NCBI GenBank assembly: GCA_963787835.1
Contig: CAWBEI010000002.1
Span: forward strand, 320,001-384,000
Direction of reading: 5' to 3'
Length of the DNA: 64,000 nucleotides
Origin: Ignavibacteriota bacterium
Lineage (GTDB): Bacteria > Bacteroidota > Ignavibacteria > Palsa-1295
Each line of letters starts with the position of its first letter. Position 1 is the stretch's first letter. The notes beneath the pieces were generated by a model, which saw only the letters and a list, made by a program, of their open reading frames with translations, had not been told where the DNA came from and searched no databases. The translations under genes and the position numbers were made by a program. Positions 33,202-51,080 of this stretch are shown in pieces.

Positions 33202-33884
33202 GCTCCGTAGGAGCGCAATATTTGTAGCCCCCGGTTTCAACCGGGGGTTGAGGAGGGCACAGGAATCATAAGCTCCGGAGGAGCGGCATATCACCCCAGC
33301 GCGGTAAAATCGAACAAGTATCGTTCATCGTATGGAATACCAAACGCTTCGAGCAGCGCAATATACTCCTCACGGAATGTATGCTTTTTATGATGCGCTT
33401 CCTGATTCTGAATGTACGCGATGACATGGTCTAATTGGGAACGCGAATAGGAGAATGCGCCAAAACCCTCCTGCCAACAAAAATGCCGCGTCATCCACGA
33501 CTGCTCGTTCAGCCAGAGCGTTGAACTCGCCTTGATGTGCTTGACAAGATCCGAGATCGATTGATCGGGCTTCAAGCCAACCAGAATGTGGATATGATCC
33601 GGCTCGTTTTCAATTGCAATGAGTTTATGTTTGTGATTTTGAATGATACCCGTAATGTATTTTTGAAGTTCCTCTTTATGCTCGCGTGGGATGAGGTTTT
33701 CACGACCTTTGACAGCAAAAACAAGATGAATATAAAGTTGTGTGTAGGTATTGGCCATTTGGGTGATATTACGCTCCTACGGAGCTAAGGGGTATTATTC
33801 GTGCTCCGCAACCCCCGATTAAAATCGGGGGCTACAAAGATTAGGCTCCTAATGGAGCCATGTAATATTCCGCTCCTGGAGCTT
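33202..33884 (-). mobile_element. Y1-transposase locus flanked by inverted REP-like palindromes (RAYT-like layout)
   Basis: Left GCTCCGTAGGAGC...GTAGCCCCCGGTTTCAACCGGGGG; right CCCCCGATTAAAATCGGGGGCTAC...GCTCCTAATGGAGC. Confidence 0.65.
33291..33758 (-). CDS. tnpA: IS200/IS605-family TnpA (Y1 HUH transposase)
   Basis: YIHLVFAVKGR, PDHIHIL (HUH), FCWQEGFGAFSYS, YIQNQ. Confidence 0.9.
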   Translation of the reverse strand: MANTYTQLYIHLVFAVKGRENLIPREHKEELQKYITGIIQNHKHKLIAIENEPDHIHILVGLKPDQSISDLVKHIKASSTLWLNEQSWMTRHFCWQEGFGAFSYSRSQLDHVIAYIQNQEAHHKKHTFREEYIALLEAFGIPYDERYLFDFTALG

Positions 33885-34012
33885 AAAATCGCTCAAATTT
33901 TCTCCTGCACAATTCATAAAAATTTTCCAGTGCCATTTACGGCACCTTTGTGATTTGGTGCGGTGTTCCTGAATTCGGACTTATTTACGAAAACGGGTGT
34001 TCCACCCTGACC

Positions 34013-34044
34013 ACCCCCCAGCCCCCTCCTTGAAAAGGAGGGGG
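34013..34044 (+). repeat. CCCCCTCCT/AGGAGGGGG palindrome in the recA leader
   Basis: ACCCCCCAGCCCCCTCCTTGAAAAGGAGGGGG. Confidence 0.85.
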
Positions 34045-34079
34045 TAATAAAAATCTTTTAATCGGAAAGCACTTAAACT

Positions 34080-35168
34080 ATGCAAGACACAGCAACGAGA
34101 GACGCGCGTAAGAAAGCACTCACGATCGCGATGGACGCGATCGAGAAAAATCACGGCAAGGGATCGGTCATGCGATTGGGCGATCAGCCGCATGTGAAAG
34201 TGGATGTGATCCCCACCGGCTCGCTTTCCATCGATGCTGCGATCGGCATTGGCGGCGTGCCGCGCGGCCGCGTGATCGAGATCTTCGGACCGGAATCCTC
34301 CGGTAAAACCACGCTGTGCCTGCATATCATCGCGGAAGCGCAAAAGCGCGGCGGAAACGCTGCTTTTATCGATGCCGAGCATGCACTCGATGTGAATTAC
34401 TCGAAGCGTCTCGGCGTGAATGTGGATGAGCTTATTCTCTCGCAGCCTGAATTTGGCGAACAGGCGCTTGATATTCTTGAACAGCTTGTGCGTTCGGCTG
34501 CGCTCGATGTCATTGTTGTCGATTCCGTTGCCGCGCTTACGCCTCGCGCAGAAATTGAAGGCGAAATGGGCGATGCGCAGATGGGATCTCATGCGCGGCT
34601 TATGTCGCAGGCCATGCGGAAAATTACGGCCGTTATCGGCAAATCCGGTACGACGGTTATCTTCACCAATCAATTACGCTCAAAGATCGGCGTGATGTAT
34701 GGCAATCCCGAAACAACGACGGGCGGCAATGCGCTGAAATTTTATGCCTCGGTGCGCCTGGATATTCGCCGCCGCGATGTCATTAAAGAAGGCACGGAAA
34801 TTATTGGCAATCGCGTGCGCGTGAAAGTCGTGAAGAACAAACTTGCGCCGCCATTCCGCGAAGTGGAGTTCGATGTGCTCTACAACGAAGGCATCTCGAA
34901 AATGGGCGATATGATCGATGTTGGCATCGAGAACGACATCATTCAGAAATCAGGCTCGTGGTTCTCCTTCGAAGGCGAGCGCATCGGCCAGGGACGCGAA
35001 TCTGTCAAGGCATTCCTGAAAGAAAATGCGGATTCCTTCGCAAAAGTTGAGAAAGCTGTGAGGAAAAAACTTGGTATCGAGATCGAAGGAATCGCCGGCA
35101 ACCTTGCGACGAATGGTGCCGTCGCAGCGGGCGGGGTGATCGAGGAGAAGAAAAAGAGGGCCACCTGA
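34080..35168 (+). CDS. recA: Recombinase RecA
   Basis: [43 protein letters not shown]. Confidence 0.98.
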
Positions 35169-35207
35169 ACCGGGATTTATGAGATGAATGGGATGTTTGG
35201 GATGGGT

Positions 35208-36182
35208 ATGAAACGATATCTTTTCATAATAGCAATTTTCGCATCATCCTGCTCGTCGAGTTCGACCTCACCAGGATCGGCTCCAAGCTATGGTTCGGGA
35301 GAGTTTGGTTTCACTGTGAACGGCCAGACCGTGGATCGTATCGGGGATGATAAAGGTACGGCCGCTTCGGCGACAATTGCAAGCAATTCTTGGCTAACAA
35401 TATCACTCACATACCCCGGTGAGCTACGAGGTTATGCAATGAATGGTGTAAACATAAGCCTGAAAATGTGGCAATTACGCACGGGCACTCTTGAAGTGAA
35501 AGGCAAATATAATCCTGTAACGCCGCAAGATTCAAATTGCGCAATTCCTTCGCTGCAGTATGTCGGTGTGGACGAATCAGTAGTTAGTACCTACCCGCAA
35601 GGGAGTGTGACTATAACGAAGATAGATACTTTGAATAACCTTGTCAGTGGTAGATTCCAATTCATTATAGACGATGCACCACTTCCTTACGATACCGTTA
35701 CCAATGGTTTCTTCAATGATGTTCCAATCATTACGGGTGGCGGAGGTTTTGCTGGATCTCTGTCTGGAATTCGGAACGATGACAATAATGGGGTATATCG
35801 CGACGACTCATTTCATTCCCCTAAAAATGGGATTGCATCAATAACATGTTACAAAGATGCTGGAACGAAAAATTTAGAAATTCAGGCCAATGTTTATTAT
35901 CCTGACGCAAGCTCTACCTATTTTAACATCACGCTGTACAATGCACAAGACGGATATTTCCCGTTTACCGGATACAGCGGAGGCGCATTCGGACTTTTTT
36001 CAGACAGTAATGGGGCGGATGGTGGCTTTTTCTCTGGTGGCATAACCATCACTAAATTTGATACTGTAAATCACCGATTTTCTGGATCATTTAGCATCAA
36101 TGCATCAGGTGGTGCGGGAGGGGTCACCTTCAATTCAACGTTCCAAGGCACAATCGATAGCGTCCGTTGGTATGATCTTTAG
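35208..36182 (+). CDS. Hypothetical lipoprotein with internally duplicated beta domain
   Basis: MKRYLFIIAIFASS-C; repeated G.(V/I)TITK.DT.N...SG.F motif. Confidence 0.7.
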   Translation: MKRYLFIIAIFASSCSSSSTSPGSAPSYGSGEFGFTVNGQTVDRIGDDKGTAASATIASNSWLTISLTYPGELRGYAMNGVNISLKMWQLRTGTLEVKGKYNPVTPQDSNCAIPSLQYVGVDESVVSTYPQGSVTITKIDTLNNLVSGRFQFIIDDAPLPYDTVTNGFFNDVPIITGGGGFAGSLSGIRNDDNNGVYRDDSFHSPKNGIASITCYKDAGTKNLEIQANVYYPDASSTYFNITLYNAQDGYFPFTGYSGGAFGLFSDSNGADGGFFSGGITITKFDTVNHRFSGSFSINASGGAGGVTFNSTFQGTIDSVRWYDL

Positions 36183-36296
36183 GTTTTCAGACCATTACTC
36201 GACCGATAACCCATCGGCCTACAACGCAAAGTCCATGCTTGCTGTTATGGGATCGACCGTCAATAAGTAAATTTTCAAAAATTGGAGAATATAAAA

Positions 36297-36701
36297 ATGC
36301 TTCGAAGATTACTTCTTATTTCAATTGCATTCACCCTTGTCGCGTGTGCAACGCCTTATGTTAAAAATGCCGGTGGGCTGTTCAGCGGGAGCGGTTATCA
36401 GGATATACCCATCGATTCCACCACCTACCGCATCGTCTTCTACGGAAGCCACGGCGCCACAAGCCTGGAGCAAGTGGATCGGTATGCGTTTTACCGTTCC
36501 GCAGAGCTAACAGAAGAAAAAGGCTACGATTATTTCATCATCCAGCAAAGTGGCGCGGATGAAAAGAATCGCATCGCGTGGAATACCGTACGCATGTTCA
36601 AAGGCCAGCCTCCTGAAAACGATTTTGCCACGTTCGATGCGCGAACGGTCATAAGGGAAATGGCCCCGTACATTCAGCGAGGCGAGGAAGGAGCTAAATA
36701 G
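36297..36701 (+). CDS. CC0125/CC1285-like lipoprotein 1
   Basis: LVA-C lipobox; GYQDIPIDSTTYRIVF...YRSAELT..KGYDYF. Confidence 0.75.
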   Translation: MLRRLLLISIAFTLVACATPYVKNAGGLFSGSGYQDIPIDSTTYRIVFYGSHGATSLEQVDRYAFYRSAELTEEKGYDYFIIQQSGADEKNRIAWNTVRMFKGQPPENDFATFDARTVIREMAPYIQRGEEGAK

Positions 36702-36783
36702 TCGGTATCCCATGTTTTGATTTTGTATTTGTGCTTTCTTTTCTTCCATTTTTTATTTCTTCAACCATTGCCGCTTTATCCTT

Positions 36784-37318
36784 ATGAAAAACAAACAGAG
36801 TGTCATCGCCGTGTTAGGGATCGGATTGTTGTTCTTAGCTTCCTGCGCTACAAAGTACGCACCAGCCACTGGCTCGTTTTGGGACGGCCATACCGGTTAT
36901 TCCGAGATCCCGCTCGATAGCACTATCTACCAAGTCACGTTCTGTGGTAATAATAATACCACAGATGAAGTTGTAAACCGGTATGCCCTTTACCGCTGTG
37001 CGGAACTTACCTCGCAGCGCGGGTTCGATTACTTCGAGGTACTCGATAATAACGATGTCGCCGCGATCACCTCGACCGTCAATCATAATAATACGCAGAA
37101 GACGGAAGTGGAGCACAAGGTCGATCCGCAAACCGGCAGAGTTGTCCCGGTGACCGTTACCACCAATAATGGAAGTTCCACCGTAACCACACAAGCTGCG
37201 CACACGGTAACGAAAACCATTCGGATGTTCCAGGGGGACCGTCCGGGCAGAAGACCCTAATGCCTTCGACGCCAAATCCATGGTTACAATGATGGCGCCG
37301 AGCATTCAGCGTCCATAA
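36784..37318 (+). CDS. CC0125/CC1285-like lipoprotein 2, +1 frameshift near 37245
   Basis: LAS-C; YRCAELTSQRGFDYF; removing one G in CCGGG restores the conserved tail AEDPNAFDAKSMVTMMAPSIQRP ending at 37318. Confidence 0.7.
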
Positions 37319-37339
37319 GAACGCAATCCTATCCTTGCC

Positions 37340-37759
37340 ATGAAAGGACTAGCACTTTTTCTATTATTCTGTTGCGGGCTACTGTTTTCTGCATGCTCCT
37401 CGCCCACGAGATACGCTGCCAATCCCGATCCCGCGCTTGGCAATTACGGTTATAGCGAGGTGCAGGAAGACTCCACAAGGTTCCAGGTTACCTTTGCTGC
37501 AAATTACCAGACACCGACGCAAACGGTAGATCAATACGCCCTTTACCGCTGTGCAGAGCTGACGGTACAACGCGGATTCGATTATTTTATCGTACTTCAC
37601 TCAAAGAATTCTACCTATCTGCTGGGCCGTCGCCGCGAACCTTCGACCACCAAGACCATCCGGATGTTCTTGGGCGAAAGTCCAAAAAGAAATCCGAACG
37701 CCTACGATGCAAAGACCCTGTTGGGCGTGATGGGCCCGAGCATCGAACGCGGAGATTGA
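37340..37759 (+). CDS. CC0125/CC1285-like lipoprotein 3
   Basis: FSA-C; GYSEVQEDSTRFQVTF...YRCAELTVQRGFDYF...PNAYDAK. Confidence 0.75.
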   Translation: MKGLALFLLFCCGLLFSACSSPTRYAANPDPALGNYGYSEVQEDSTRFQVTFAANYQTPTQTVDQYALYRCAELTVQRGFDYFIVLHSKNSTYLLGRRREPSTTKTIRMFLGESPKRNPNAYDAKTLLGVMGPSIERGD

Positions 37760-37762
37760 GGT

Positions 37763-38431
37763 ATGGAAGGCCGCATCACGTCGATCGTCCGGCAAAAGAA
37801 GGATAAAGCTCGCGCCTCGATCTTCTTGGATGAGGAATTTGCATTTGGTGTTTGCGATCAGACCGTCGAACAGTTCCGTCTTCGAAAAGGCGATTACATC
37901 GATCGTGAGATATTCGAAAAGATCACGCAGTTCGATCTTTTTGTGGAATCCAAACGCATTGCCCTCGCCTATTTGAATTACCGCGCCCGCAGCGAGAAAG
38001 AGATCCGTGAGCGGCTTCAAAAAGAAGACATTCCGGAACCCATCCTTTTACAAGTCCTGGAATTCCTGAAGGAACATAACCTGATCGACGATGAAGCGTG
38101 GTCCAAGTCCTTTGTGAACGATAAATTGATTCGGAAGCCGGTGTCTTCAAAACAATTAGCGTATGGCTTAGCCCAAAAGGGAGTATCGAAAGAAGTGATC
38201 GAAGAGACGATCACGGGTCTGAATGCGAACGAAAGCGACGAAAGCCGTGCGATGCGTGCCGCCGAAAAACGCTGGCCTCGCATTCTGAAAACTGAACCCG
38301 ACCCTCGAAAACAAAAGCAGAAACTCTACACTTTTCTCGCCGGACGTGGGTTCTCGTTTGAGACAATCAATGAAGTATATAAAAAAATTGCCATGGACGC
38401 AAAGGATAGCATGGACGATGGAGATGTTTGA
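37763..38431 (+). CDS. recX: Regulatory protein RecX
   Basis: SIFLDEEFAFGV, ALAYLNYRARSEKEIRERL, FLAGRGFS; downstream of recA. Confidence 0.88.
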   Translation: MEGRITSIVRQKKDKARASIFLDEEFAFGVCDQTVEQFRLRKGDYIDREIFEKITQFDLFVESKRIALAYLNYRARSEKEIRERLQKEDIPEPILLQVLEFLKEHNLIDDEAWSKSFVNDKLIRKPVSSKQLAYGLAQKGVSKEVIEETITGLNANESDESRAMRAAEKRWPRILKTEPDPRKQKQKLYTFLAGRGFSFETINEVYKKIAMDAKDSMDDGDV

Positions 38432-38470
38432 TCGCCCCATCATTCATCTTTCATCATTCAACATTGCCCC

Positions 38471-39424
38471 ATGACCCTCGCTCGCGGCATATTTATTTTT
38501 CTCGGGGCGCTGATATTTTCTGCGCTGTTGTGGGCATACGTTCGGCTTTCAGCGGCTTACGAGGCGGATGTCGATCTGCCGATGAAACTCACCGCGCCGA
38601 AAGGATATGCGCTCGCCTCCGGATTACCGGAACGGCTGCACACCCGGGTGCGTGGTGCAGGCTGGCAGATCCTGCTCATGGGTTTTACCAAGAATGCGGA
38701 TTTTCAGCTCGATCTTTCCGAACGCGCCCTTCCGCCGGAAAACATTGTCACGCTGCATTCCGATGAAATTTCGAATGCCGCCGTACTGCCAAGCGAACTG
38801 CGCGTGCTAAAGGTCGAGCCCGATTCACTCGGGCTGCAATTCAGCAAAGCCATCGAAAAACAAGTTCCGATCGAGTCCCGCCTGGAGATCCATCCCGCCA
38901 GAGGTTATACGATCGTGGGTGAACCGGTGATAACCCCCCGAAGTGTTTCGGTACTCGGCGCCATGGAAGTACTCGATTCGCTGAGAACTTTCCCAACGCA
39001 ATCTCTTCGCGTGAACGATGCGAAGGAAGATGTGGATCGTGCGGTACTTCTTTCTGATTCGCTGGATAATTTCATTACGGTAACGAACGCGCCAAAAATT
39101 ACCGTTCATGTTTCCGTGCAAGCCATCGGAGAGCGAAAAGTAAAAGGAGTCCCGGTGACCATCGATGCACTGCCTCCGCAATTCGATCTGCTGCTCATAC
39201 CCGGAACGATAGCTGTCACCGTTCGTGGCGGCGTCTCGGAACTTGCAAAGCTTACTCCCGCTTCCATCCATGCGCGGGTGCTGTATAACCCGATGCTGCT
39301 CGACACCGCAAGCGTGGTAACCCCGCAAATAGACGTTCCCAAAGGACTGACGTATCTCTCCGCAGATCCTCCCAGTGTGAAGTTCATCCTAAGAAGAAAG
39401 AGCGTCGTTCATGCTGCTCCGTGA
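38471..39424 (+). CDS. YbbR/CdaR-like membrane-anchored protein
   Basis: N-terminal TM ..ALLWAYV; repeated P..V.V.V.G YbbR-type modules. Confidence 0.7.
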   Translation: MTLARGIFIFLGALIFSALLWAYVRLSAAYEADVDLPMKLTAPKGYALASGLPERLHTRVRGAGWQILLMGFTKNADFQLDLSERALPPENIVTLHSDEISNAAVLPSELRVLKVEPDSLGLQFSKAIEKQVPIESRLEIHPARGYTIVGEPVITPRSVSVLGAMEVLDSLRTFPTQSLRVNDAKEDVDRAVLLSDSLDNFITVTNAPKITVHVSVQAIGERKVKGVPVTIDALPPQFDLLLIPGTIAVTVRGGVSELAKLTPASIHARVLYNPMLLDTASVVTPQIDVPKGLTYLSADPPSVKFILRRKSVVHAAP

Positions 39425-41171
39425 CGCTTCCTTCGTGGTCGTCGATGTGGAAACGACGGGATTAAATGCCGCACAGCACCGCATCACCGAGATAGGGCTG
39501 GTACGGATTGAATCGGGTTCCATCACGGAGTCCTTTCAATCGCTAATCAATCCGGAGCAATACATCTCGCCATTCATCACCCAGCACACGGGAATCACGA
39601 ATGCGATGGTCTATGATAAGCCGAAATTTCGGGAGATCGCGCCGGAGATCCTGAATTTTATTGCACGATCGAATGCACCGGTGCTGGTTGGACACAACGT
39701 AAAGTTCGATCACGGATTTCTTCTGGCATCCTTCGAACGCGCGGGAATTCTCTTCGAAACAATCCAAGGCCCCCTCTGCACATGCCGGCTTGCACGGCGT
39801 TTGCTGCCACAACTTGGAAGCAAATCGCTCAAGAGCGTGCAGGATCATTTCGGAATAAAGAATTCCAGGCAGCATCGCGCATTAGGGGACGCCGAGGCTA
39901 CCGCCAAGATCCTTGCGAATTTCATTGGAATGGTGGGTGACTTAGAGATCGAAACGGTCGAGGATCTTCTGCGCCTGCAATTTGCGAAACCAAATTATGC
40001 ACGCCGCAAAACCAAGCGGGAGCTTTCCTTGCGCGAGAAAGTACGTATGTTCCCGGACCGCCCCGGTGTGTATATGATGACGAGCCGAACCGGCGATGTG
40101 CTCTACGTCGGTAAAGCGAAGAGCCTGCACGAACGCGTTGCTTCCTATTTTATGCAATCGCATACGGAAGGAACCAAGCTCACCCGAATGATGCGCGCCG
40201 TGCAGGATATAACCTACGAAGAAACAGGCAGCGAGCTTTCTGCGCTGTTGTTGGAAAGCAAAAAGATAAAGGAGCTGAATCCGCGGTTCAATTCGCTCGA
40301 TAGGCGGTACAAACCGCAAAGTTTTATCCGGCTGGATGTGCAGAACGAATTTCCGGAACTGACGTTCATTCGGGAACCCGCACCCGATGGCGCAGAATAT
40401 TTCGGCCCATTTCGGTCGCGCGAGGCAGCGGAATCCCTGATGGAGATCCTGAACCATGCGTTCAAACTCCGTGAGTGCGGCGATAAATTTAAGATCGGCG
40501 CTGATGTTCGGCCCTGCTTGTACTACGAGATCGACCGGTGCAATGCACCATGCGCGCTTTTGCAAACAAAAGAATCCTATCGCGAGGAAGTAAAACGCCT
40601 GCAAGAATTCCTTGCCGCTGGAGACGAAGGAATTTTAGCGCACATCGAGGCGATGATGCGTGAGGCATCCGATAAGTTGGATTTCGAGGAAGCCCTATTC
40701 TATAAAGATCGGCTTTTTGAACTCCGCCGCGTGCTTGGCAATGGTGATAGACCCTCGGCCAGCCTTAGCGCAAATGATTTTGTCTTGATGAACCCACTCA
40801 ATGCCTCGGAATGCGAGATATATTTTGTCCGTTTCGGGCAATTGATGAAACAAATGGTTCTCGGCGCTGGGCATCTTGCCATTGCGGAGCAATGGTTCTC
40901 GCGTCAGCTTCGCATGTATTACGGTGCAACGTCCTCGTTGCCACCCTCGGCCGGCAAACCCGAGATCGACGAAATGCGCATCCTTTCCCGATGGGTAGAA
41001 TCCAGCAAGAAAAAAGGTAGCCGCGTGGTGTATCTGAGCGAACCATGGGAACATTCCGTCAAGAAATTAGTCGAAGAGTTGAGATCGATCCTTGTGGAAT
41101 CACAGAAAGAATTATCACAATCACGATCGAGTCAGCGTAAGCTTCTGCTTAAGCCCATGAAAACAGCCTAA
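39411..41171 (+). CDS. DEDDh exonuclease (DnaQ-like) fused to a UvrC/Cho-like GIY-YIG nuclease
   Basis: VVDVETTG, GHNVKFD, HRALGDA; PGVYMM..LYVGKAKSL; Cys cluster LREC..RPCLYYEIDRCNAPC; UVR motif LDFEEA. Confidence 0.88.
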   Translation: MLLRDASFVVVDVETTGLNAAQHRITEIGLVRIESGSITESFQSLINPEQYISPFITQHTGITNAMVYDKPKFREIAPEILNFIARSNAPVLVGHNVKFDHGFLLASFERAGILFETIQGPLCTCRLARRLLPQLGSKSLKSVQDHFGIKNSRQHRALGDAEATAKILANFIGMVGDLEIETVEDLLRLQFAKPNYARRKTKRELSLREKVRMFPDRPGVYMMTSRTGDVLYVGKAKSLHERVASYFMQSHTEGTKLTRMMRAVQDITYEETGSELSALLLESKKIKELNPRFNSLDRRYKPQSFIRLDVQNEFPELTFIREPAPDGAEYFGPFRSREAAESLMEILNHAFKLRECGDKFKIGADVRPCLYYEIDRCNAPCALLQTKESYREEVKRLQEFLAAGDEGILAHIEAMMREASDKLDFEEALFYKDRLFELRRVLGNGDRPSASLSANDFVLMNPLNASECEIYFVRFGQLMKQMVLGAGHLAIAEQWFSRQLRMYYGATSSLPPSAGKPEIDEMRILSRWVESSKKKGSRVVYLSEPWEHSVKKLVEELRSILVESQKELSQSRSSQRKLLLKPMKTA

Positions 41172-41173
41172 TT

Positions 41174-41253
41174 GTCATTCCCGCGAAAGAGGGAATCCAG
41201 ATCTTGAATGTCATCTCATTTCGGGTCTGGATTCCAGCTTTCGCGGGAATGAC
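41174..41253. repeat. GTCATTCCCGCGAAAG-type inverted REP-like pair
   Basis: Same family as 21339-21418. Confidence 0.85.
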
Positions 41254-41388
41254 ATGATTGGCAAAATTTTCGTGCGACTTTAGGGCTGCTCATGTCTCTT
41301 ATCTCCAAATCCGAAGAATGGTGACCGGTCATTATCCTCGGGCTAACACACACCATAGGTGCTACTTGACCATTGGTGCTAACACAGC

Positions 41389-41997
41389 ATGACACTACAG
41401 GCAGCGAGCATTTCGGCTCGCGATAGCGAGAAGCACACGCGATTCATGGCCCTATTGGAGCCGTGCCTTGCGAAGCTTTCCCGTTACTGCCATGCGATGA
41501 CAAAGGATGTCGAGGATGGACGCGATCTGCTATCGGATGCGATCCTGCTGGCCTACGAGAACTTCGATAAACTTCGAGCGCCGGAAGCTTTCACGAGCTA
41601 TATCTTCACCACGGCGCGCCGGTTATTTTACCGGCGCGAGCGAAGAAAAAAGTTCTGGGGAGTATTCGGAAGCGAAGCGGAAGCCATCGCAGACGAGCGG
41701 GAACCCACGCCCGAGGTGCGTATAGATCTCGAAGCGCTCGACCGCGCACTGACGCAATTACCCGAAAAACAACGCGAGGCCGTGATACTTTTCGAAATTT
41801 CCGGGCTTTCGCTCGCGGAAATTCGGAACGTGCAGGGCGGATCGCTTTCGGGTGTGAAATCGCGCATTGTACGCGGACGCGAAAAGCTGGCTGAACTGCT
41901 CGGCGAGCGACCGCTCAGGCAGACAAGGACGCCTGCTCCACGTGAGACATCTTTTGAAAGATCGCAAGTCGCTTATATGATGAGGGAGAAACTATGA
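41389..41997 (+). CDS. ECF RNA polymerase sigma factor
   Basis: Region 2 DGRDLLSDAIL..F.SYIFT.ARR; region 4 LPEKQREAVILFEISGLSLAEI..GVKSRI.RGR. Confidence 0.9.
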   Translation: MTLQAASISARDSEKHTRFMALLEPCLAKLSRYCHAMTKDVEDGRDLLSDAILLAYENFDKLRAPEAFTSYIFTTARRLFYRRERRKKFWGVFGSEAEAIADEREPTPEVRIDLEALDRALTQLPEKQREAVILFEISGLSLAEIRNVQGGSLSGVKSRIVRGREKLAELLGERPLRQTRTPAPRETSFERSQVAYMMREKL

Positions 41998-44480
41998 AGA
42001 ACGATACACTTCAACCATCCGAGAACTTAGCGAATCACTTCGCGCCTTACCGCGAGGAAGCGCCGCTGATCTCTCTTCCCGAAGTCGAAAAGCTCCTTAC
42101 CGGTAGTGCCACGCTGAAAAACCACCCCCCAACCCCCTCCTTCTTTAGGAGGGGGAGTTTCTTCAACAATAGGAGAATTCTTATGACACTCAGCGGAATC
42201 GCCGGACTTGCAACTTTCAGCTATTTTGCATTTTTTAGTAACCATTTTAATGGGACAATTGGGACTACTGCTACTAATGGGCCTAACACAACCCAGAGGT
42301 CCTATTTGACCCAGCCGTCCCATGACCTTGCCACTGATACACGTTCGCAGCTTGCAACACCTGCAAGCACTACTGCGAAACACACTTCACAGCTTCTCAA
42401 AACTGGCAACGTACATGGCCCCTGGAGCGCCGGCAACGACCAGTTCTACGCCGATCTCTCGCCGGAGGAATTAGCGAAGCTGGGGATTGTGGTGAATGCG
42501 GATACGGTTATAGCATATAAGTTACCACCAAATAAACCCCTCGAATCCATGCAGCTTACTGCCCATTCCATTGGAGGCGGTAACGCAAAAGCAACATTAC
42601 CTGCGGGTGTCAATCCACCAAGCTTTTTCCCTGTCCTTATGACCCGTAACAACGGACACGGTGCAGCTTTCGTCATCGAAGAAAAAGGCCGAACACAGGA
42701 ATGGGGAATGGTTTCAGATGATGAAGGGCAGAAAATGGTTCGGGATTGGCTACAATCACCCGGTACGCCAGGTTACTCCCCGATATGGTTCAAAACAAGT
42801 TCCTTTAAGATATCAGACACCTCCGTAGAAATCAATAAGTGGACACTCGAAGTTGGGAAAAATTTTGCTAAACCCCCAATGCCGTTCTGTGTGCCGAATA
42901 TAGACGGTCTTTCGGAAAGCACAAAAGCCGCACTCATGCAACTGGCCAATTATTATTCCGGCAAAGCGGAAAAACCTGATTTCACAATGCCCAAAAATCT
43001 TTTTCTCAATGTGGATACTGTTACGCCACAAAATATGCTGGATGAAATCGACAGCGAAGAAAATGATGCTACCATGACGCATCTTCGTTCAACAATGGCG
43101 CGCTTAAATGAACTTGTTCCTGTCATTGTTCGGCCCAAAGGCGGTTCCGGTGCGCCTGACACAAACGATTTCATCTTTTGGTACGAGCCAAGCGAAGCAC
43201 TATTCAATGCACTGCCGCCAGCACAAGCAGTAATATTCCGAGAGAAGTTGAATACACCCCCGCATTGCATGACATCACCAAATGCCGTACTGACGAGCGC
43301 GGAGGTTACCTTTTGCGTAGATCATCCACAAACTGTTCATATCACCGTGCGCGACCTGACCGGAAAGGATCGTATCAGTTGGGACAAAGCCGCAATTACT
43401 GGGGACAACGTCGATACATTCAGCACGGCGACTTTGGCTTCCGGCATGTATCTCGTCACTGTAAAAGATGACGATGGGAACGAACGCACCCGCCGCATGT
43501 GGATAGAGAATACACATCCGAAGGAGCCGGGATGGGAATATGAGAATATGAAACCCGACGCAGAGCATGCAATGGAAACATTCTCTACGTTTGGAGGAGA
43601 TACCACAGATAATATTCAAAAAGCGATTCTTAATATCACCTGCATCGTTATGGATAACGAAAAGCTTGCAAGTATTGGCATCGAAAACAATGATAGCCTT
43701 GCTGCATTCTACCATTCGACTACCAAAGCTGGAACTGTAGATTATGTCGGTGTTCTCCGGAATTCAAAAGTCAAATCATTATCAAAGGACCCAATAATAG
43801 ATGGAGTTAAGCCAAAATTTCTCCAGCTAAATGATATTACATCCGTGACCGTACCAACATTCCATCCATTGTTCGTTACAGATGGCCGTGGAGTTAAAAG
43901 ACTTTTCATGACTGATTTTTCCAACATACCAACATTCGATGCCGCCGAAAATCTTCGAAAGATTCACGAAATGAATAAGAAGTTCGATGAAGCTGACCAA
44001 CTCATCCCCATCCTACTTCGGGCCGATAATTCTTCCGATTCCGTCGGCTCTCGCGACCTCATCTTCTGGTACAAACCTACGCCGGAGTTCCTTGCGGCAC
44101 TTCCGGATTCCGAGCGAGCGGTTGCGCAAATGATGTCAAGCGGTACGAACAATCCTCCGGCTTCGGCAACCGATGTACACGGTGCAATCCAGGAAGCTAT
44201 TGCCTATCCAAATCCCTCGCATGGGAAGTTCAACGTCAACGTGACATTAAACGCCAAGCGCACGATCACGATCACACTTCGGAACTTGCTCGGCCAAGAG
44301 GCTGCCCCACCTGTTCAAACTTATCAAATGGGAATGTCCGCTACACCCAATAGCGTGACATATACCTACTCACCGTGGCCAACGCTCGATTTCAGCTCTG
44401 TACCAGAGGGCGTGTATCTCCTCGATATTTCCTCCGATCAGGGCGAACGATATATCGAGCGGGTGGTGATTGCGCATTGA
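41994..44480 (+). CDS. Putative anti-sigma-like membrane-anchored protein with a duplicated module and two T9SS-CTD-like domains
   Basis: ATGA overlap with the sigma gene; one TM (ILMTLSGIAGLATFSYFAFF); repeats FIFWYEPSEALFNALP / LIFWYKPTPEFLAALP; CTD-like LASGMYLVTV and YPNPS..VPEGVYLLDI. Confidence 0.7.
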   Translation: MKNDTLQPSENLANHFAPYREEAPLISLPEVEKLLTGSATLKNHPPTPSFFRRGSFFNNRRILMTLSGIAGLATFSYFAFFSNHFNGTIGTTATNGPNTTQRSYLTQPSHDLATDTRSQLATPASTTAKHTSQLLKTGNVHGPWSAGNDQFYADLSPEELAKLGIVVNADTVIAYKLPPNKPLESMQLTAHSIGGGNAKATLPAGVNPPSFFPVLMTRNNGHGAAFVIEEKGRTQEWGMVSDDEGQKMVRDWLQSPGTPGYSPIWFKTSSFKISDTSVEINKWTLEVGKNFAKPPMPFCVPNIDGLSESTKAALMQLANYYSGKAEKPDFTMPKNLFLNVDTVTPQNMLDEIDSEENDATMTHLRSTMARLNELVPVIVRPKGGSGAPDTNDFIFWYEPSEALFNALPPAQAVIFREKLNTPPHCMTSPNAVLTSAEVTFCVDHPQTVHITVRDLTGKDRISWDKAAITGDNVDTFSTATLASGMYLVTVKDDDGNERTRRMWIENTHPKEPGWEYENMKPDAEHAMETFSTFGGDTTDNIQKAILNITCIVMDNEKLASIGIENNDSLAAFYHSTTKAGTVDYVGVLRNSKVKSLSKDPIIDGVKPKFLQLNDITSVTVPTFHPLFVTDGRGVKRLFMTDFSNIPTFDAAENLRKIHEMNKKFDEADQLIPILLRADNSSDSVGSRDLIFWYKPTPEFLAALPDSERAVAQMMSSGTNNPPASATDVHGAIQEAIAYPNPSHGKFNVNVTLNAKRTITITLRNLLGQEAAPPVQTYQMGMSATPNSVTYTYSPWPTLDFSSVPEGVYLLDISSDQGERYIERVVIAH

Positions 44481-44501: not shown

Positions 44502-44628
44502 GTCATTGCGAGGAGAATCAAACGACCGGAGGGAGTTTGATTCGACGAAGCAATCTCAAACTTGCAGCGAAGAGATTGCTTCGTCAGAATCACTCCGCTA
44601 TCGCTGCGTGATTCCTCCTCGCAATGAC
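44502..44628. repeat. GTCATTGCGAGG...GAAGCAATC inverted REP-like pair
   Basis: GTCATTGCGAGGAG...CTCCTCGCAATGAC; same family at 63783-63908. Confidence 0.85.
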
Positions 44629-44640
44629 ATTAAAATAAAC

Positions 44641-44676
44641 AAAAGCGCACCCGCCATTGCGGCGGGTGCGCTTTTT
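44641..44676. terminator. Bidirectional intrinsic terminator
   Basis: AAAAGCGCACCCGCC-ATTGC-GGCGGGTGCGCTTTT. Confidence 0.8.
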
Positions 44677-44697: not shown

Positions 44698-45060
44698 TTA
44701 ATGTGCCATCGGTGCGCGGCCACCACGCCCACGGCCGGGTGCTCCCCAATGTCCATCGACGAAGCCGTAACGTCCGCCCCGGCGCGGGTAGCGCGGCCCA
44801 TACCAAACGTATCCGGGATGCGGCGGGCGTTCCCAGCGTCCGGGAACCCAGATATAAGCCCCGGCGGCATAGTCCCACCGGTGATACCCGGCGATCCATA
44901 CCCCATCGGGATAGGGCGCGGCAACAACGACTTCGTGACGCGGCGGCGGCGGGCCGATGTGAATATCGAAACTGACCTGCGCGAACGCAGGCGCAGCGGG
45001 CGTCAACGCTGCCAACGCTAAGAGCCCGCAAAAACTGATGACTTTCATTACATTACGCAT
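44698..45060 (-). CDS. YXWGXW (WxxGxW) repeat protein
   Basis: Signal peptide; IGPPPPRHEVV, VWIAGYHRW, YIWVPGRW; AAGGAG RBS upstream. Confidence 0.8.
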   Translation of the reverse strand: MRNVMKVISFCGLLALAALTPAAPAFAQVSFDIHIGPPPPRHEVVVAAPYPDGVWIAGYHRWDYAAGAYIWVPGRWERPPHPGYVWYGPRYPRRGGRYGFVDGHWGAPGRGRGGRAPMAH

Positions 45061-48774: not shown

Positions 48775-50904
48775 CTATTTCTGTTTAGCTTCTAATGCCT
48801 CAAGGCGTCGCTCCATTTCAGCAATAGTCTTTTCCTGCGCTTCGGATTGCGCATGTTCCTTCTTCAATTCCTCCAGCAACAGCACTGAAAGCATCGGATA
48901 TTTTACGGCATCGGGAATAACTTCCTCAGACTTTGATCCGGGTATCACATCTTTCGATTTTGCATATTCCGCAAGTTCTGGAAGCACTTTCGCCACATCT
49001 TCTGCGACAAGGCCGAAATATTCCTTCCCATCAATCTTAGAAGTATAACTCACGGGACGTAGATCGTACAGTTTGTCGGTATTGATATCCAGATCGTGAA
49101 TATTGGTTTTGTACCGTGCCGAAGAAGTGCTGCGCATGATCTGCCCTGTTGATGTTACCACCATGTTTGGGGAATTAGCCGTTGTGGCTGCATACGCTCC
49201 CTGGCAATAAAGTGATGAGACTGCACTATTCCCAAGCACTACTTGATTGCTCGTCGTTGCCTGTGCTCCGCTGCCAAGCGTAGTAGTGTTATTGAGACTG
49301 GAGGACGTTGGCCCCGAGCTCGAACCAATTGCCGTATTATCATTGCCAGTTGCATTTTGATTCAAGGCAAGATAGCCGAGCGCTGTATTGCGATAACCAA
49401 TAGAATCGGAAAAAAGCACATGATAACCAACGCCTGTATTATACGCACCGGTGGAATTCCAGAATAATGCAGATGATCCTACAGCGGTGTTTGCCGTTGC
49501 GCTATCAAGAATGGCGGGGCTATTCAGTGACCAGGAATACCCATTTCGGTAAAGCGCAGAATCCCCAATCGCGACGAGATATGATCGTTCCCATGAATAG
49601 GAGAGTGCTTCAGAACCAACCGCGACATTGAAGGAGCCTGAATCGACGTTATCCATGCTGTTCACGCCAACTGCGGTATTTTCTGACCCGTATTTAATAT
49701 TATACATAGAGCCAAATCCGACTGCACAATTAAAGGAAGGTGAATTCGTGTTTTCCATCGCTTCTGTACCGAAGGCGCTGTTGCCTGATCCCTGGCAATA
49801 CTTTAGAGTGGATGCTCCAAAAGCTGCATTGCTACTACCGCTCTGACACGTCTCTAAAGCCAAGTCGCCGCAAGCCGTGTTGCCACCTCCACTCGTATCA
49901 GATTGAATCGCATCAAAACCAACCGCGGTGTTTGCAGAACCTCCGGAAATCGAATGAAGAGCGCCAATACCCAAAGCGGTATTTGCAATCAAGCCGTGAT
50001 CGCTTGTGCCCGATCCCGCGCCTAAATAGACACAGGACCCATTATCTCGGCAATCTTGAAGATTCTTTATTGAATCAGGTCCGCTCGATTGGGTAACGGT
50101 CGCCGGTTTCCACGTTTTTCCGTCCCATGTTAATACTTGCCCGGTATCTGCATTCTGCTTTCCGAGCGAGATCGTTGCGATGGGGCCGCTTCCGTTCGTG
50201 ATCGTAATGCTGCTGTCGGAATTTTGAACGGCCTGAATGCCCGTACCTCCCGTGAAGGTTTGGGAATGAATCGTTATCGTAGTTCCGGTATCGGCGATGG
50301 TCGTACCACCCGCACCCACGAGCGTTAGTTTCCCCGCCGCCGAGTTGAGCGAGAGTACGCCGCTATTTCCTATACCGATACTTCCAGAATTGTTCGCGAT
50401 ACTGATGCCACTGCCTCCCGTGATCGTGATCGAGCCATAGGAACCGTTCACGTTACTGACATAAGAACCGGATAGCGCGTTCGCCGTCGTGGCGTGCGTT
50501 GCATAATTCGCCGAATCGGCATTCAACGCCCGAAAGGCATAGGGTGCGAAGCTGACCGTCGAGCGTGGGGTCAGTTCCGGCGCGCCATCGACGGATACTC
50601 CCAGGTAATACTGTTTCGTGAAATCGAGCGTGGGTAGCAGCGGAGTTACCGCGCCAATCGCAAGATTGAAAATGCCGTTCACTACCATGACGGTTTGTGT
50701 TTCCGAATACAGCGGTGATCCGCCTGTCTCGGAGGTATAGAGCCGGATGGTCAGCGTGTCCGTGCCATTGACGGCCACTCCGTTATTCTGGAGTAATCCC
50801 TGATACGAAATGGTCGGTGACGTTTGGCCCGACACATTAGTGTTGAAAAGTGCGAGAACTCCAACGATCCATGCAATGGATAAGCAGACGGTATATTTTT
50901 TCAT
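48775..50904 (-). CDS. Secreted fibre/adhesin-like protein with NTAxG beta-helix repeats and a peptidase S74-type chaperone tail
   Basis: Signal peptide; ISYQGLL N-terminal module; NTAVG/NTALG repeats; SSARYKTNIHDL..LRPVSY..GLVAEDV..coiled coil. Confidence 0.8.
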   Translation of the reverse strand: MKKYTVCLSIAWIVGVLALFNTNVSGQTSPTISYQGLLQNNGVAVNGTDTLTIRLYTSETGGSPLYSETQTVMVVNGIFNLAIGAVTPLLPTLDFTKQYYLGVSVDGAPELTPRSTVSFAPYAFRALNADSANYATHATTANALSGSYVSNVNGSYGSITITGGSGISIANNSGSIGIGNSGVLSLNSAAGKLTLVGAGGTTIADTGTTITIHSQTFTGGTGIQAVQNSDSSITITNGSGPIATISLGKQNADTGQVLTWDGKTWKPATVTQSSGPDSIKNLQDCRDNGSCVYLGAGSGTSDHGLIANTALGIGALHSISGGSANTAVGFDAIQSDTSGGGNTACGDLALETCQSGSSNAAFGASTLKYCQGSGNSAFGTEAMENTNSPSFNCAVGFGSMYNIKYGSENTAVGVNSMDNVDSGSFNVAVGSEALSYSWERSYLVAIGDSALYRNGYSWSLNSPAILDSATANTAVGSSALFWNSTGAYNTGVGYHVLFSDSIGYRNTALGYLALNQNATGNDNTAIGSSSGPTSSSLNNTTTLGSGAQATTSNQVVLGNSAVSSLYCQGAYAATTANSPNMVVTSTGQIMRSTSSARYKTNIHDLDINTDKLYDLRPVSYTSKIDGKEYFGLVAEDVAKVLPELAEYAKSKDVIPGSKSEEVIPDAVKYPMLSVLLLEELKKEHAQSEAQEKTIAEMERRLEALEAKQK

Positions 50905-51080
50905 AGAATTCCCGGAAATGGGTACATTACACACAGGAGACGACACGGGGAATCACCCAAAAGTCACAATAGCTTGAAAAAACTGAAGCTCCAAAACTTC
51001 TCACCCCGAACCCACTTCACCTGAAGAACAGGTGTAGAAGATTCGGGGCGAGGATCATTCGGTCTCGAAAAGGCTCTCGC

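Follow-up and report, generated by a model that had tools for sequence, protein, structure and literature searches.

Here, we analysed a 64,000-nucleotide stretch of an Ignavibacteriota bacterium genome (GCA_963787835.1, contig CAWBEI010000002.1, positions 320,001 to 384,000 of the forward strand; hereafter, the window), in which the gene of an extracytoplasmic function (ECF) sigma factor is coupled to that of a large partner protein. The two open reading frames (ORFs), 41389–41997 (202 amino acids, aa) and 41994–44480 (828 aa), overlap through an ATGA. The pair is real and conserved, and we assign it with high confidence to the ECF sigma/anti-sigma pairs; what sets it apart is that the predicted anti-sigma factor ends in a C-terminal sorting domain (CTD) of a type IX secretion system (T9SS) and contains a predicted second in-frame start, Met64, from which the gene probably makes a headless 765-aa short form beside the long anti-sigma form. 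The best explanation of the whole, which we hold tentatively and at slightly less than an even chance, is that an ECF sigma factor is paired with a CTD-tailed anti-sigma factor made as two in-frame products, with the CTD serving as a docking mimic of secreted cargo.

The gene pair and its family

The features of the operon, in window coordinates, are as follows.

41273–41301, plus strand: conserved promoter-like site of ECF type, its −35 box starting at 41273 and its −10 box at 41293; autoregulation is probable
41311–41351, plus strand: conserved element in the 5′ leader, containing a 10-bp palindrome (41322–41331), a hairpin or operator candidate
41389–41997, plus strand: ECF sigma factor, 202 aa, with a C-terminal tail conserved in the alignment; PF04542, PF08281 and TIGR02937 over cut-off
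41994–44480, plus strand: partner gene, long form, 828 aa, ATGA-coupled, with its own Shine–Dalgarno sequence (41984–41988)
41994–42182, plus strand: conserved N-terminal head, residues 1–63, putative anti-sigma domain with two low-confidence predicted helices (model pLDDT <50)
42171–42185, plus strand: internal Shine–Dalgarno sequence (42171–42176) and in-frame ATG of Met64 (42183–42185), predicted second start of the 765-aa headless form
42177–42236, plus strand: weakly hydrophobic Gly/Ser/Thr/Ala-rich helix, residues 62–81, predicted membrane anchor (hydropathy 1.63; helix modelled at 57–81 with low pLDDT)
42237–42431, plus strand: low-complexity linker of ~65 aa, poorly conserved and predicted to be disordered (pLDDT <50 over residues 31–139)
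42432–43256, plus strand: module 1, a conserved domain split by a long, variable insert (family alignment)
43266–43508, plus strand: CTD 1, with invariant Cys425 and Cys441 (TIGR04183, 429–500); internal here, terminal in single-module relatives
43626–44141, plus strand: module 2, a second copy of the module 1 domain whose insert is short (modelled with confidence, pLDDT 88.8, pTM 0.83)
44193–44477, plus strand: CTD 2, terminal T9SS type A sorting domain (PF18962, 738–826)

By its domain content, the 41389–41997 product is an ECF sigma factor (sigma70 group 4) of ~200 aa with regions 2 and 4 only: the sigma70 r2 and r4_2 profiles score over cut-off, and there is no match to r1.2 or r3. For the partner, the initial annotation had described ATGA coupling, an N-terminal segment of ~60 aa, one hydrophobic segment and two copies of a module followed by a CTD-like domain, and all of these were borne out. 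A conserved 63-aa head precedes the helix; residues ~62–81 form the sole hydrophobic stretch, though a weak one (Kyte–Doolittle 19-mer maximum 1.63, with 1.4–3.0 in relatives); and the motifs LAKLGI/LASIGI, P.F.P, LVPVI/LIPIL, IFWY.P and ALP are present in the modules. Profile searches placed both CTDs over cut-off, with TIGR04183 at 55.3 bits (cut-off 23) and PF18962 at 49.1 bits (cut-off 27) and the best stretches given above.

A conserved gene directly 3′ of an ECF gene, encoding a short conserved head before one helix, is what single-pass anti-sigma factors show, and from these sequence features the partner is likely one of them, with an outer part carrying T9SS CTDs. Of the hallmarks of T9SS type A cargo, it has the terminal type A CTD and lacks, as judged from motif counts rather than SignalP, the cleavable N-terminal Sec signal peptide; in the long form, the hydrophobic helix begins only at residue 62. 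The invariance of the cysteine pair (Cys425, Cys441) suggests that the CTD side lies in an oxidising compartment. We rejected a mis-called extension as the origin of the 63-aa head, in view of its conservation, its own ribosome-binding site and the ATGA coupling.

A BLAST search of the partner against itself returned the diagonal only, and the single-module paralogue of the same genome aligns to both module copies (E-values of 8.5e-14 and 1.6e-6). Across the family, the module appears as a split domain whose insert spans tens to hundreds of residues. For the model of module 2, Foldseek gave no match at E ≤ 0.001 and the best VIA-align hit had a Z of 4.3 over 41 residues; a fold search with the full-length model returned only multi-immunoglobulin (Ig) proteins at a TM-score of ~0.1, which is uninformative, and an ESM Atlas search with either module gave no usable match. 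We do not claim a new fold for module 2, since the absence of a structural match is no proof of one. The head profile reached no better than E 0.28 against PDB sequences.

The sigma/partner pair recurs, as judged from its sequences, across Kapabacteria-like genomes. A search with residues 1–425 retrieved 34 proteins among 7992 candidates, one of them named Candidatus Kapabacteria; in their alignment, counted by eye, 22 have the second module and CTD, 11 end after the first CTD and one breaks off, so that CTD number ranges from 1 to 3, with a single member having three. The conservation of the pair, which had been put forward as a check, holds at the loci analysed wherever upstream DNA exists: the sigma gene immediately precedes the partner gene in 10 of 12 genome loci (no upstream DNA is available for the remaining two) and in 11/11 held-out loci, all 20 fetched remote regions encode a sigma factor and a partner with a CTD-like tail (tails judged by motif), and ATGA coupling is seen in 19 of 26 genome and metagenome loci, the remainder being fragments or frameshifted. 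A head-plus-helix profile matched 35 of the 251 class genomes, spread over four families. Phylum-wide, the module occurred in 11 of 401 genomes, all of this class, and outside the class the head profile gave five weak matches, four of which are unrelated proteins.

Searching 1.8 billion representative sequences with the module profile gave 800 matches at E ≤ 0.001, and our representative counts refer to 144 new proteins among the best 150 of these. The head is present in 115 of the 144, a terminal CTD in 135 and both in 110. Pfam detected the CTD in all 20 representatives searched (19 over cut-off) and otherwise only one overlapping FlgD match. Head, helix and terminal CTD are retained while the insert varies in length, and so form the fixed parts. 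The initial annotation had made much of the two CTDs, pointing out that cargo usually has one, and only 1 of the 137 CTD-bearing ORFs of this genome indeed has two matches; the duplication itself did not turn out to be a key trait. One CTD is the norm, with two in only 5 of the 144 representatives, so on the sequence evidence the duplication is a local, incidental elaboration, and we rejected it as an essential feature.

The genome also encodes a second pair (G000:C2:559266-561712), an ECF sigma factor with a 576-aa partner that has one module, one CTD, the internal Met and an insert rich in repeats; the promoter pattern found at the window is missing upstream of this pair. In three members (L064, L067 and L068), head, Met, helix and CTD are kept and a helical outer region replaces the module, from which we infer that the middle domain is exchangeable.

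A probable second start at Met64

An in-frame ATG (Met64) stands at the start of the helix, with a Shine–Dalgarno sequence six bases upstream. Met64 is invariant in the 34 homologues though the surrounding helix varies, and a Met occupies the helix start in 39 of 40 partners. At 37 of 39 of these Met sites, predicted pairing with the 16S tail is −3 kcal/mol or stronger, compared with 27% of 493 other in-frame ATGs, while among 318 control helices of the genome 102 have a Met and only 24 a Met with a site. Scored with a context matrix trained on the starts of 88 cargo genes, Met64 exceeds 99.4% of 9860 internal ATGs and 61% of the cargo starts themselves. The pattern recurs in protein-only data, where Met is found in 108 of 116 representatives, and in held-out loci, 7 of 11 of which have Met with a site (energies of −4.0 to −9.5). 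The residue before this Met has an obligate A-first codon in 70 of the 108 (28% background), which fits the promotion of initiation by A at −3 described for Flavobacterium (PMC6847099; here and below, statements drawn from cited papers refer to the parts of them that were available).

A conserved Met could instead reflect a protein-level constraint, such as a protease site or helix cap, with the purine run a by-product of basic residues and a single product made. This explanation, which bears on the second start alone and could hold alongside the rivals discussed below, gains from the purine-rich nature of Lys, Arg and Gly codons, from the weak genome-wide use of Shine–Dalgarno sequences and from the many synonymous tests on single sequences that were not significant. 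We nevertheless consider it quite unlikely. The Arg four codons upstream of Met64 is encoded by AGG in 15 of 16 close relatives, compared with 25 of 249 other Arg codons there and an AGG share of 5% of Arg codons genome-wide, and the codon frame in which the purine core of the site is read differs between lineages, a pattern indicative of selection at the nucleotide level. The combined synonymous-codon null gave 6e-9. The rank of the Met64 context among internal ATGs argues in the same direction, as does the lack of a comparable site at the helix start of four other anti-sigma-like partners of the genome (best −4.0).

Several observations speak against use of the second start. The sequences compared are kin, so the P values are overstated; the 13 held-out members comprise seven with Met and site, one with a weak site and five without the Met, suggesting that the short form is dispensable in some lineages; only 24% of the 88 cargo starts reach −3 kcal/mol, about background, so that Shine–Dalgarno sequences are not general here; and the mRNA around Met64 is not unusually open. 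Still, the site combines a conserved start codon with an initiation signal beyond coding constraint, and we think it likely that Met64 is used. The initial annotation had named a downstream start, with the hydrophobic segment as its cleaved signal peptide, as the case that would overturn its idea; there is probably indeed a second start, yet each of the two is conserved, and the idea is not overturned by it.

The short form does not resemble ordinary cargo at its N terminus. Of 108 short forms, 102 contain neither Lys nor Arg among their first six residues; by contrast, one or more of these residues occur within the first seven in 86 of 88 cargo signal peptides. A strict Ala cleavage box is found in 20 of 108 short forms compared with 78 of 103 cargo proteins, a loose box being present in 69 of the 108. 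In line with the earlier view that there is no obvious cleavable signal, the segment after Met64 thus lacks a basic n-region and mostly lacks a cleavage box, and on both grounds the short form would stay anchored. In one family member (G255:C119), the unit of ribosome-binding site and Met before the helix is tandemly duplicated.

Promoter, host secretion system and surroundings

Of 15 aligned upstream regions, 14 have a two-box ECF-type site before the sigma gene, only the paralogue lacking it; among 23 remote regions, the site is seen in 4. The exact pattern occurs 18 times in 31 family genomes (one site for the reversed-pattern control), 15 times before this sigma gene; of the remaining three sites, one lies before an outer-membrane-protein-like gene and two are uninformative. 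ECF sigma factors are usually autoregulated, so this promoter is presumably read by the adjacent sigma factor, and its conservation suggests, by analogy, that the sigma factor autoregulates its own operon. A matrix scan gave a high score only at this operon. The regulon mapping proposed in the initial annotation thus recovered the operon itself and, in the matrix and exact pattern scans, no T9SS gene. The 10-bp leader palindrome is invariant, with nine predicted pairs at −3.7 kcal/mol; because the covariation term is 0, it is possibly either a hairpin or an operator for another regulator.

CTD-partnered sigma factors form one clade with three sigma factors of this genome whose partners have barrel-like tails (tree support 99/97; barrels judged by eye, with no Pfam match). 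The similarity of the head to those of the barrel-tailed paralogue partners is weak (probability 44.6% and 10.4%). The genome has four more ECF genes (L114, L115, L116 and L117), each followed by a gene for a head–helix–linker protein with a barrel-like tail, Dma-like by eye; the partner at L115 is split in two ORFs.

As the initial annotation presumed, the host is T9SS-positive: the genome encodes SprA, four PorV and PorU, and CTD matches over cut-off number at least 148 (148 of 150 scored). SprA is found in all 251 genomes of the class. GldK, GldL, GldM and GldN were not detected in this genome, which may have a divergent energiser; the Pfam GldM and GldN models found nothing in four carrier genomes and matched the control genome, and GldM was detected in 38 of 151 genomes of the phylum and in none of 36 from families of this class. 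These results suggest that the T9SS of the class is motor-less or differently energised. Partial T9SS gene sets have been noted in Chlorobi and Ignavibacteria; our literature search retrieved no paper describing them. Two M50 proteases are encoded in the genome.

In three genomes, a response regulator that we take, from its resemblance, to be PorX-like is convergent with the partner gene (L001:8409-9935, L002:9270-10853 and L007:6548-8134), and in the present genome a presumably PorX-like regulator follows a PorV-family gene (L119:856-3547).

REP-like inverted repeats lie on both sides of the operon, and downstream of it there is also a perfect 15-bp hairpin, with A/T ends, that resembles a bidirectional terminator; these elements occupy 41173–41254, 44502–44628 and 44641–44675 of the window. 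Upstream (33291–41171) lie a transposase-like ORF (by eye), recA, lipoprotein genes, a recX-like gene, a YbbR-domain gene and a DEDD exonuclease/GIY-YIG fusion; this context is syntenic in several relatives and gives no sign of a functional link to the pair. On the minus strand, 44698–45060 encodes a small YXWGXW-like repeat protein with a weak BcpO match, and the 723-aa product of 48775–50946 contains an S74 intramolecular chaperone domain.

A proposed docking model, its rivals and its precedents

In the mechanism that we favour, the predicted sigma-binding head of the long form would hold and silence the sigma factor at the inner membrane, in which both forms would be anchored with the CTD in the periplasm. 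There, the CTD may imitate cargo, docking on the outer-membrane machinery of the T9SS without being exported. Its occupation by PorV/SprA or a CTD-binding chaperone, or its displacement by backed-up cargo, would decide on cleavage: cleavage of the long form would take place first on the outer side and next inside the membrane, there through an RseP-type protease, and the freed sigma factor would re-transcribe its own operon. The headless form would compete for docking sites or protease, thereby setting a threshold and buffering the signal. Input through T9SS docking is the more tentative part, which we place just below an even call.

The initial annotation had instead proposed that engagement of the tethered substrate by the T9SS could trigger sigma release by analogy with FlgM export; in such a model, the inhibitor would be taken away by export or pulling of the tethered protein, much as the flagellum disposes of FlgM. 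The CTDs are genuine, the translocon and PorU are present, and some energiser must serve the many cargo proteins of the class; however, export or pulling needs the GldLM motor and the GldKN ring, both undetected in the genome and class, and the idea was not sustained. In Flavobacterium johnsoniae, loading of CTDs on the translocon (PorV/SprA) needs no motor, whereas release is the energy-requiring step (PMC10994853), and in Porphyromonas gingivalis an uncleavable, inner-membrane-tethered PorA signalled yet was not exposed at the surface (PMC12152298), which together make docking without export more plausible than pulling. The 65-aa linker would also be short for a steady thread through both membranes. 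We consider such export very unlikely.

Under a different explanation, the short form is real T9SS cargo with an atypical signal peptide and the main output of the operon, while the long form acts as the anti-sigma factor and senses, by way of the module common to both, either the short form or its ligand. The conserved second start, the terminal CTD, which is standard for cargo, the promoter found almost only at this operon and the loose cleavage box in 69 of 108 short forms are all in keeping with it, as is the placement of the start at the internal Met by gene callers in 11 of 144 representatives (which may be cut contigs). What makes it fairly unlikely is the N terminus of the short form, with no basic residue in 102 of 108 and a strict Ala box in only 20 of 108. 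A little less probable still would be an ordinary envelope-stress pair, with the module and its variable insert acting as the sensor of some cue from the periplasm or envelope and the CTD being a recruited Ig-like domain used for folding, spacing or a non-T9SS partner, for instance a PorY-like kinase. Such a role would agree with a CTD number of 1 to 3, with the barrel-like-tailed partners in the same sigma clade, with the absence of a T9SS regulon from the promoter scans and with signalling by the PorA CTD without PorV, PorU, Sov or PorL (PMC12152298). Yet nearly every member retains a CTD at its end, scoring over cut-off, whereas the insert changes freely, and the second start is left unexplained.

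The docking model has to be read against a number of points. The membrane helix is weak and the topology is judged from hydropathy; binding of the sigma factor by the head is predicted from sequence and gene order; no T9SS gene was found under the promoter in scans confined to the matrix and the exact pattern; and the family occupies a minority of the class (35 of 251 genomes, compared with 251 of 251 for SprA), so it is not a core T9SS regulator. A relative in a GldM-positive genome (G106:C4) has the sigma factor, a similar head, the Met and the helix, and its C-terminal region is a different one, with no CTD match.

Anti-sigma factors of the RseA/RsiW type have coupled genes, a short head, a weak helix rich in small residues and an autoregulated operon, all of which the present pair shares, autoregulation being predicted here; unlike them, the head and outer domains found no sequence match in Pfam, NCBIfam or PDB. 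FlgM, the anti-sigma factor of sigma-28, is soluble and exported whole. Like it, the predicted anti-sigma factor described here carries the signal of a secretion system; in contrast to it, a conserved hydrophobic helix follows the head and the host has no detectable T9SS motor, so a FlgM-type assignment does not apply.

The closest likeness is to the Dma family of Bacteroides thetaiotaomicron (Dma1/Das1 and Dma2/Das2), in which an ECF sigma factor is paired with a partner consisting of a cytoplasmic head, one inner-membrane helix, a disordered tether and an outer-membrane domain, and for which proteolytic release was proposed (PMC10927553). Here, too, the sigma-adjacent partner has a head, one predicted inner-membrane helix, a linker predicted to be disordered and, at its C terminus, a domain that would be directed to the outer membrane; that domain, however, is a T9SS type A CTD (PF18962/TIGR04183) rather than the eight-stranded barrel of Dma, a module of unknown fold precedes it, the linker is shorter (~65 residues predicted to be disordered, then folded domains) and there is a conserved second start. 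The pair may thus work like a Dma or RseA-type pair, with PorA–PorY as the precedent for a signalling CTD. In the PorA–PorY–PorX–SigP cascade of P. gingivalis, a T9SS CTD is the periplasmic signal upstream of an ECF sigma factor (PMC12152298, PMC7712824); the PorA CTD also signals when tethered to the inner membrane, and its accumulation on T9SS failure was proposed as the input (PMC12152298). A CTD is predicted to play the same part here, but whereas PorA is cargo in its own right and acts by way of a histidine kinase, the CTD, the anchor and the predicted anti-sigma head are here in one chain, and our promoter scans found no T9SS regulon for the pair. N-terminal proteoform pairs from an in-frame second start are known for MrcB (PBP1b), ClpB and InfB (PMC11005335). 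As in MrcB, whose long form has an extension before the anchor, the two starts flank the membrane anchor; unlike in all three, the part lost is the predicted regulatory head.

Our literature search found no T9SS-tailed or dual-start anti-sigma factor, although subscription papers and supplements may hold one; the term ‘anti-sigma’ is absent from the main text of the proteoform paper (PMC11005335), and the portion of the ECF classification supplement that was covered has no CTD domain term. If the docking model is true, the pair would link T9SS state directly to transcription in one polypeptide, unlike the PorA–PorXY–SigP route, and would be an anti-sigma switch tuned by a headless twin from the same gene. 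A bolder version, which we consider somewhat unlikely, is that one gene makes both a T9SS cargo or decoy from its hidden start and a tethered anti-sigma sensor, the ratio of which would read the capacity of a T9SS free of the GldLM motor, in a one-gene checkpoint with a domain of undescribed fold. For a class that keeps SprA throughout, with well over 100 CTD proteins in this genome and no detectable GldLM motor, the promoter of this operon would be a ready reporter for how such a T9SS is energised.

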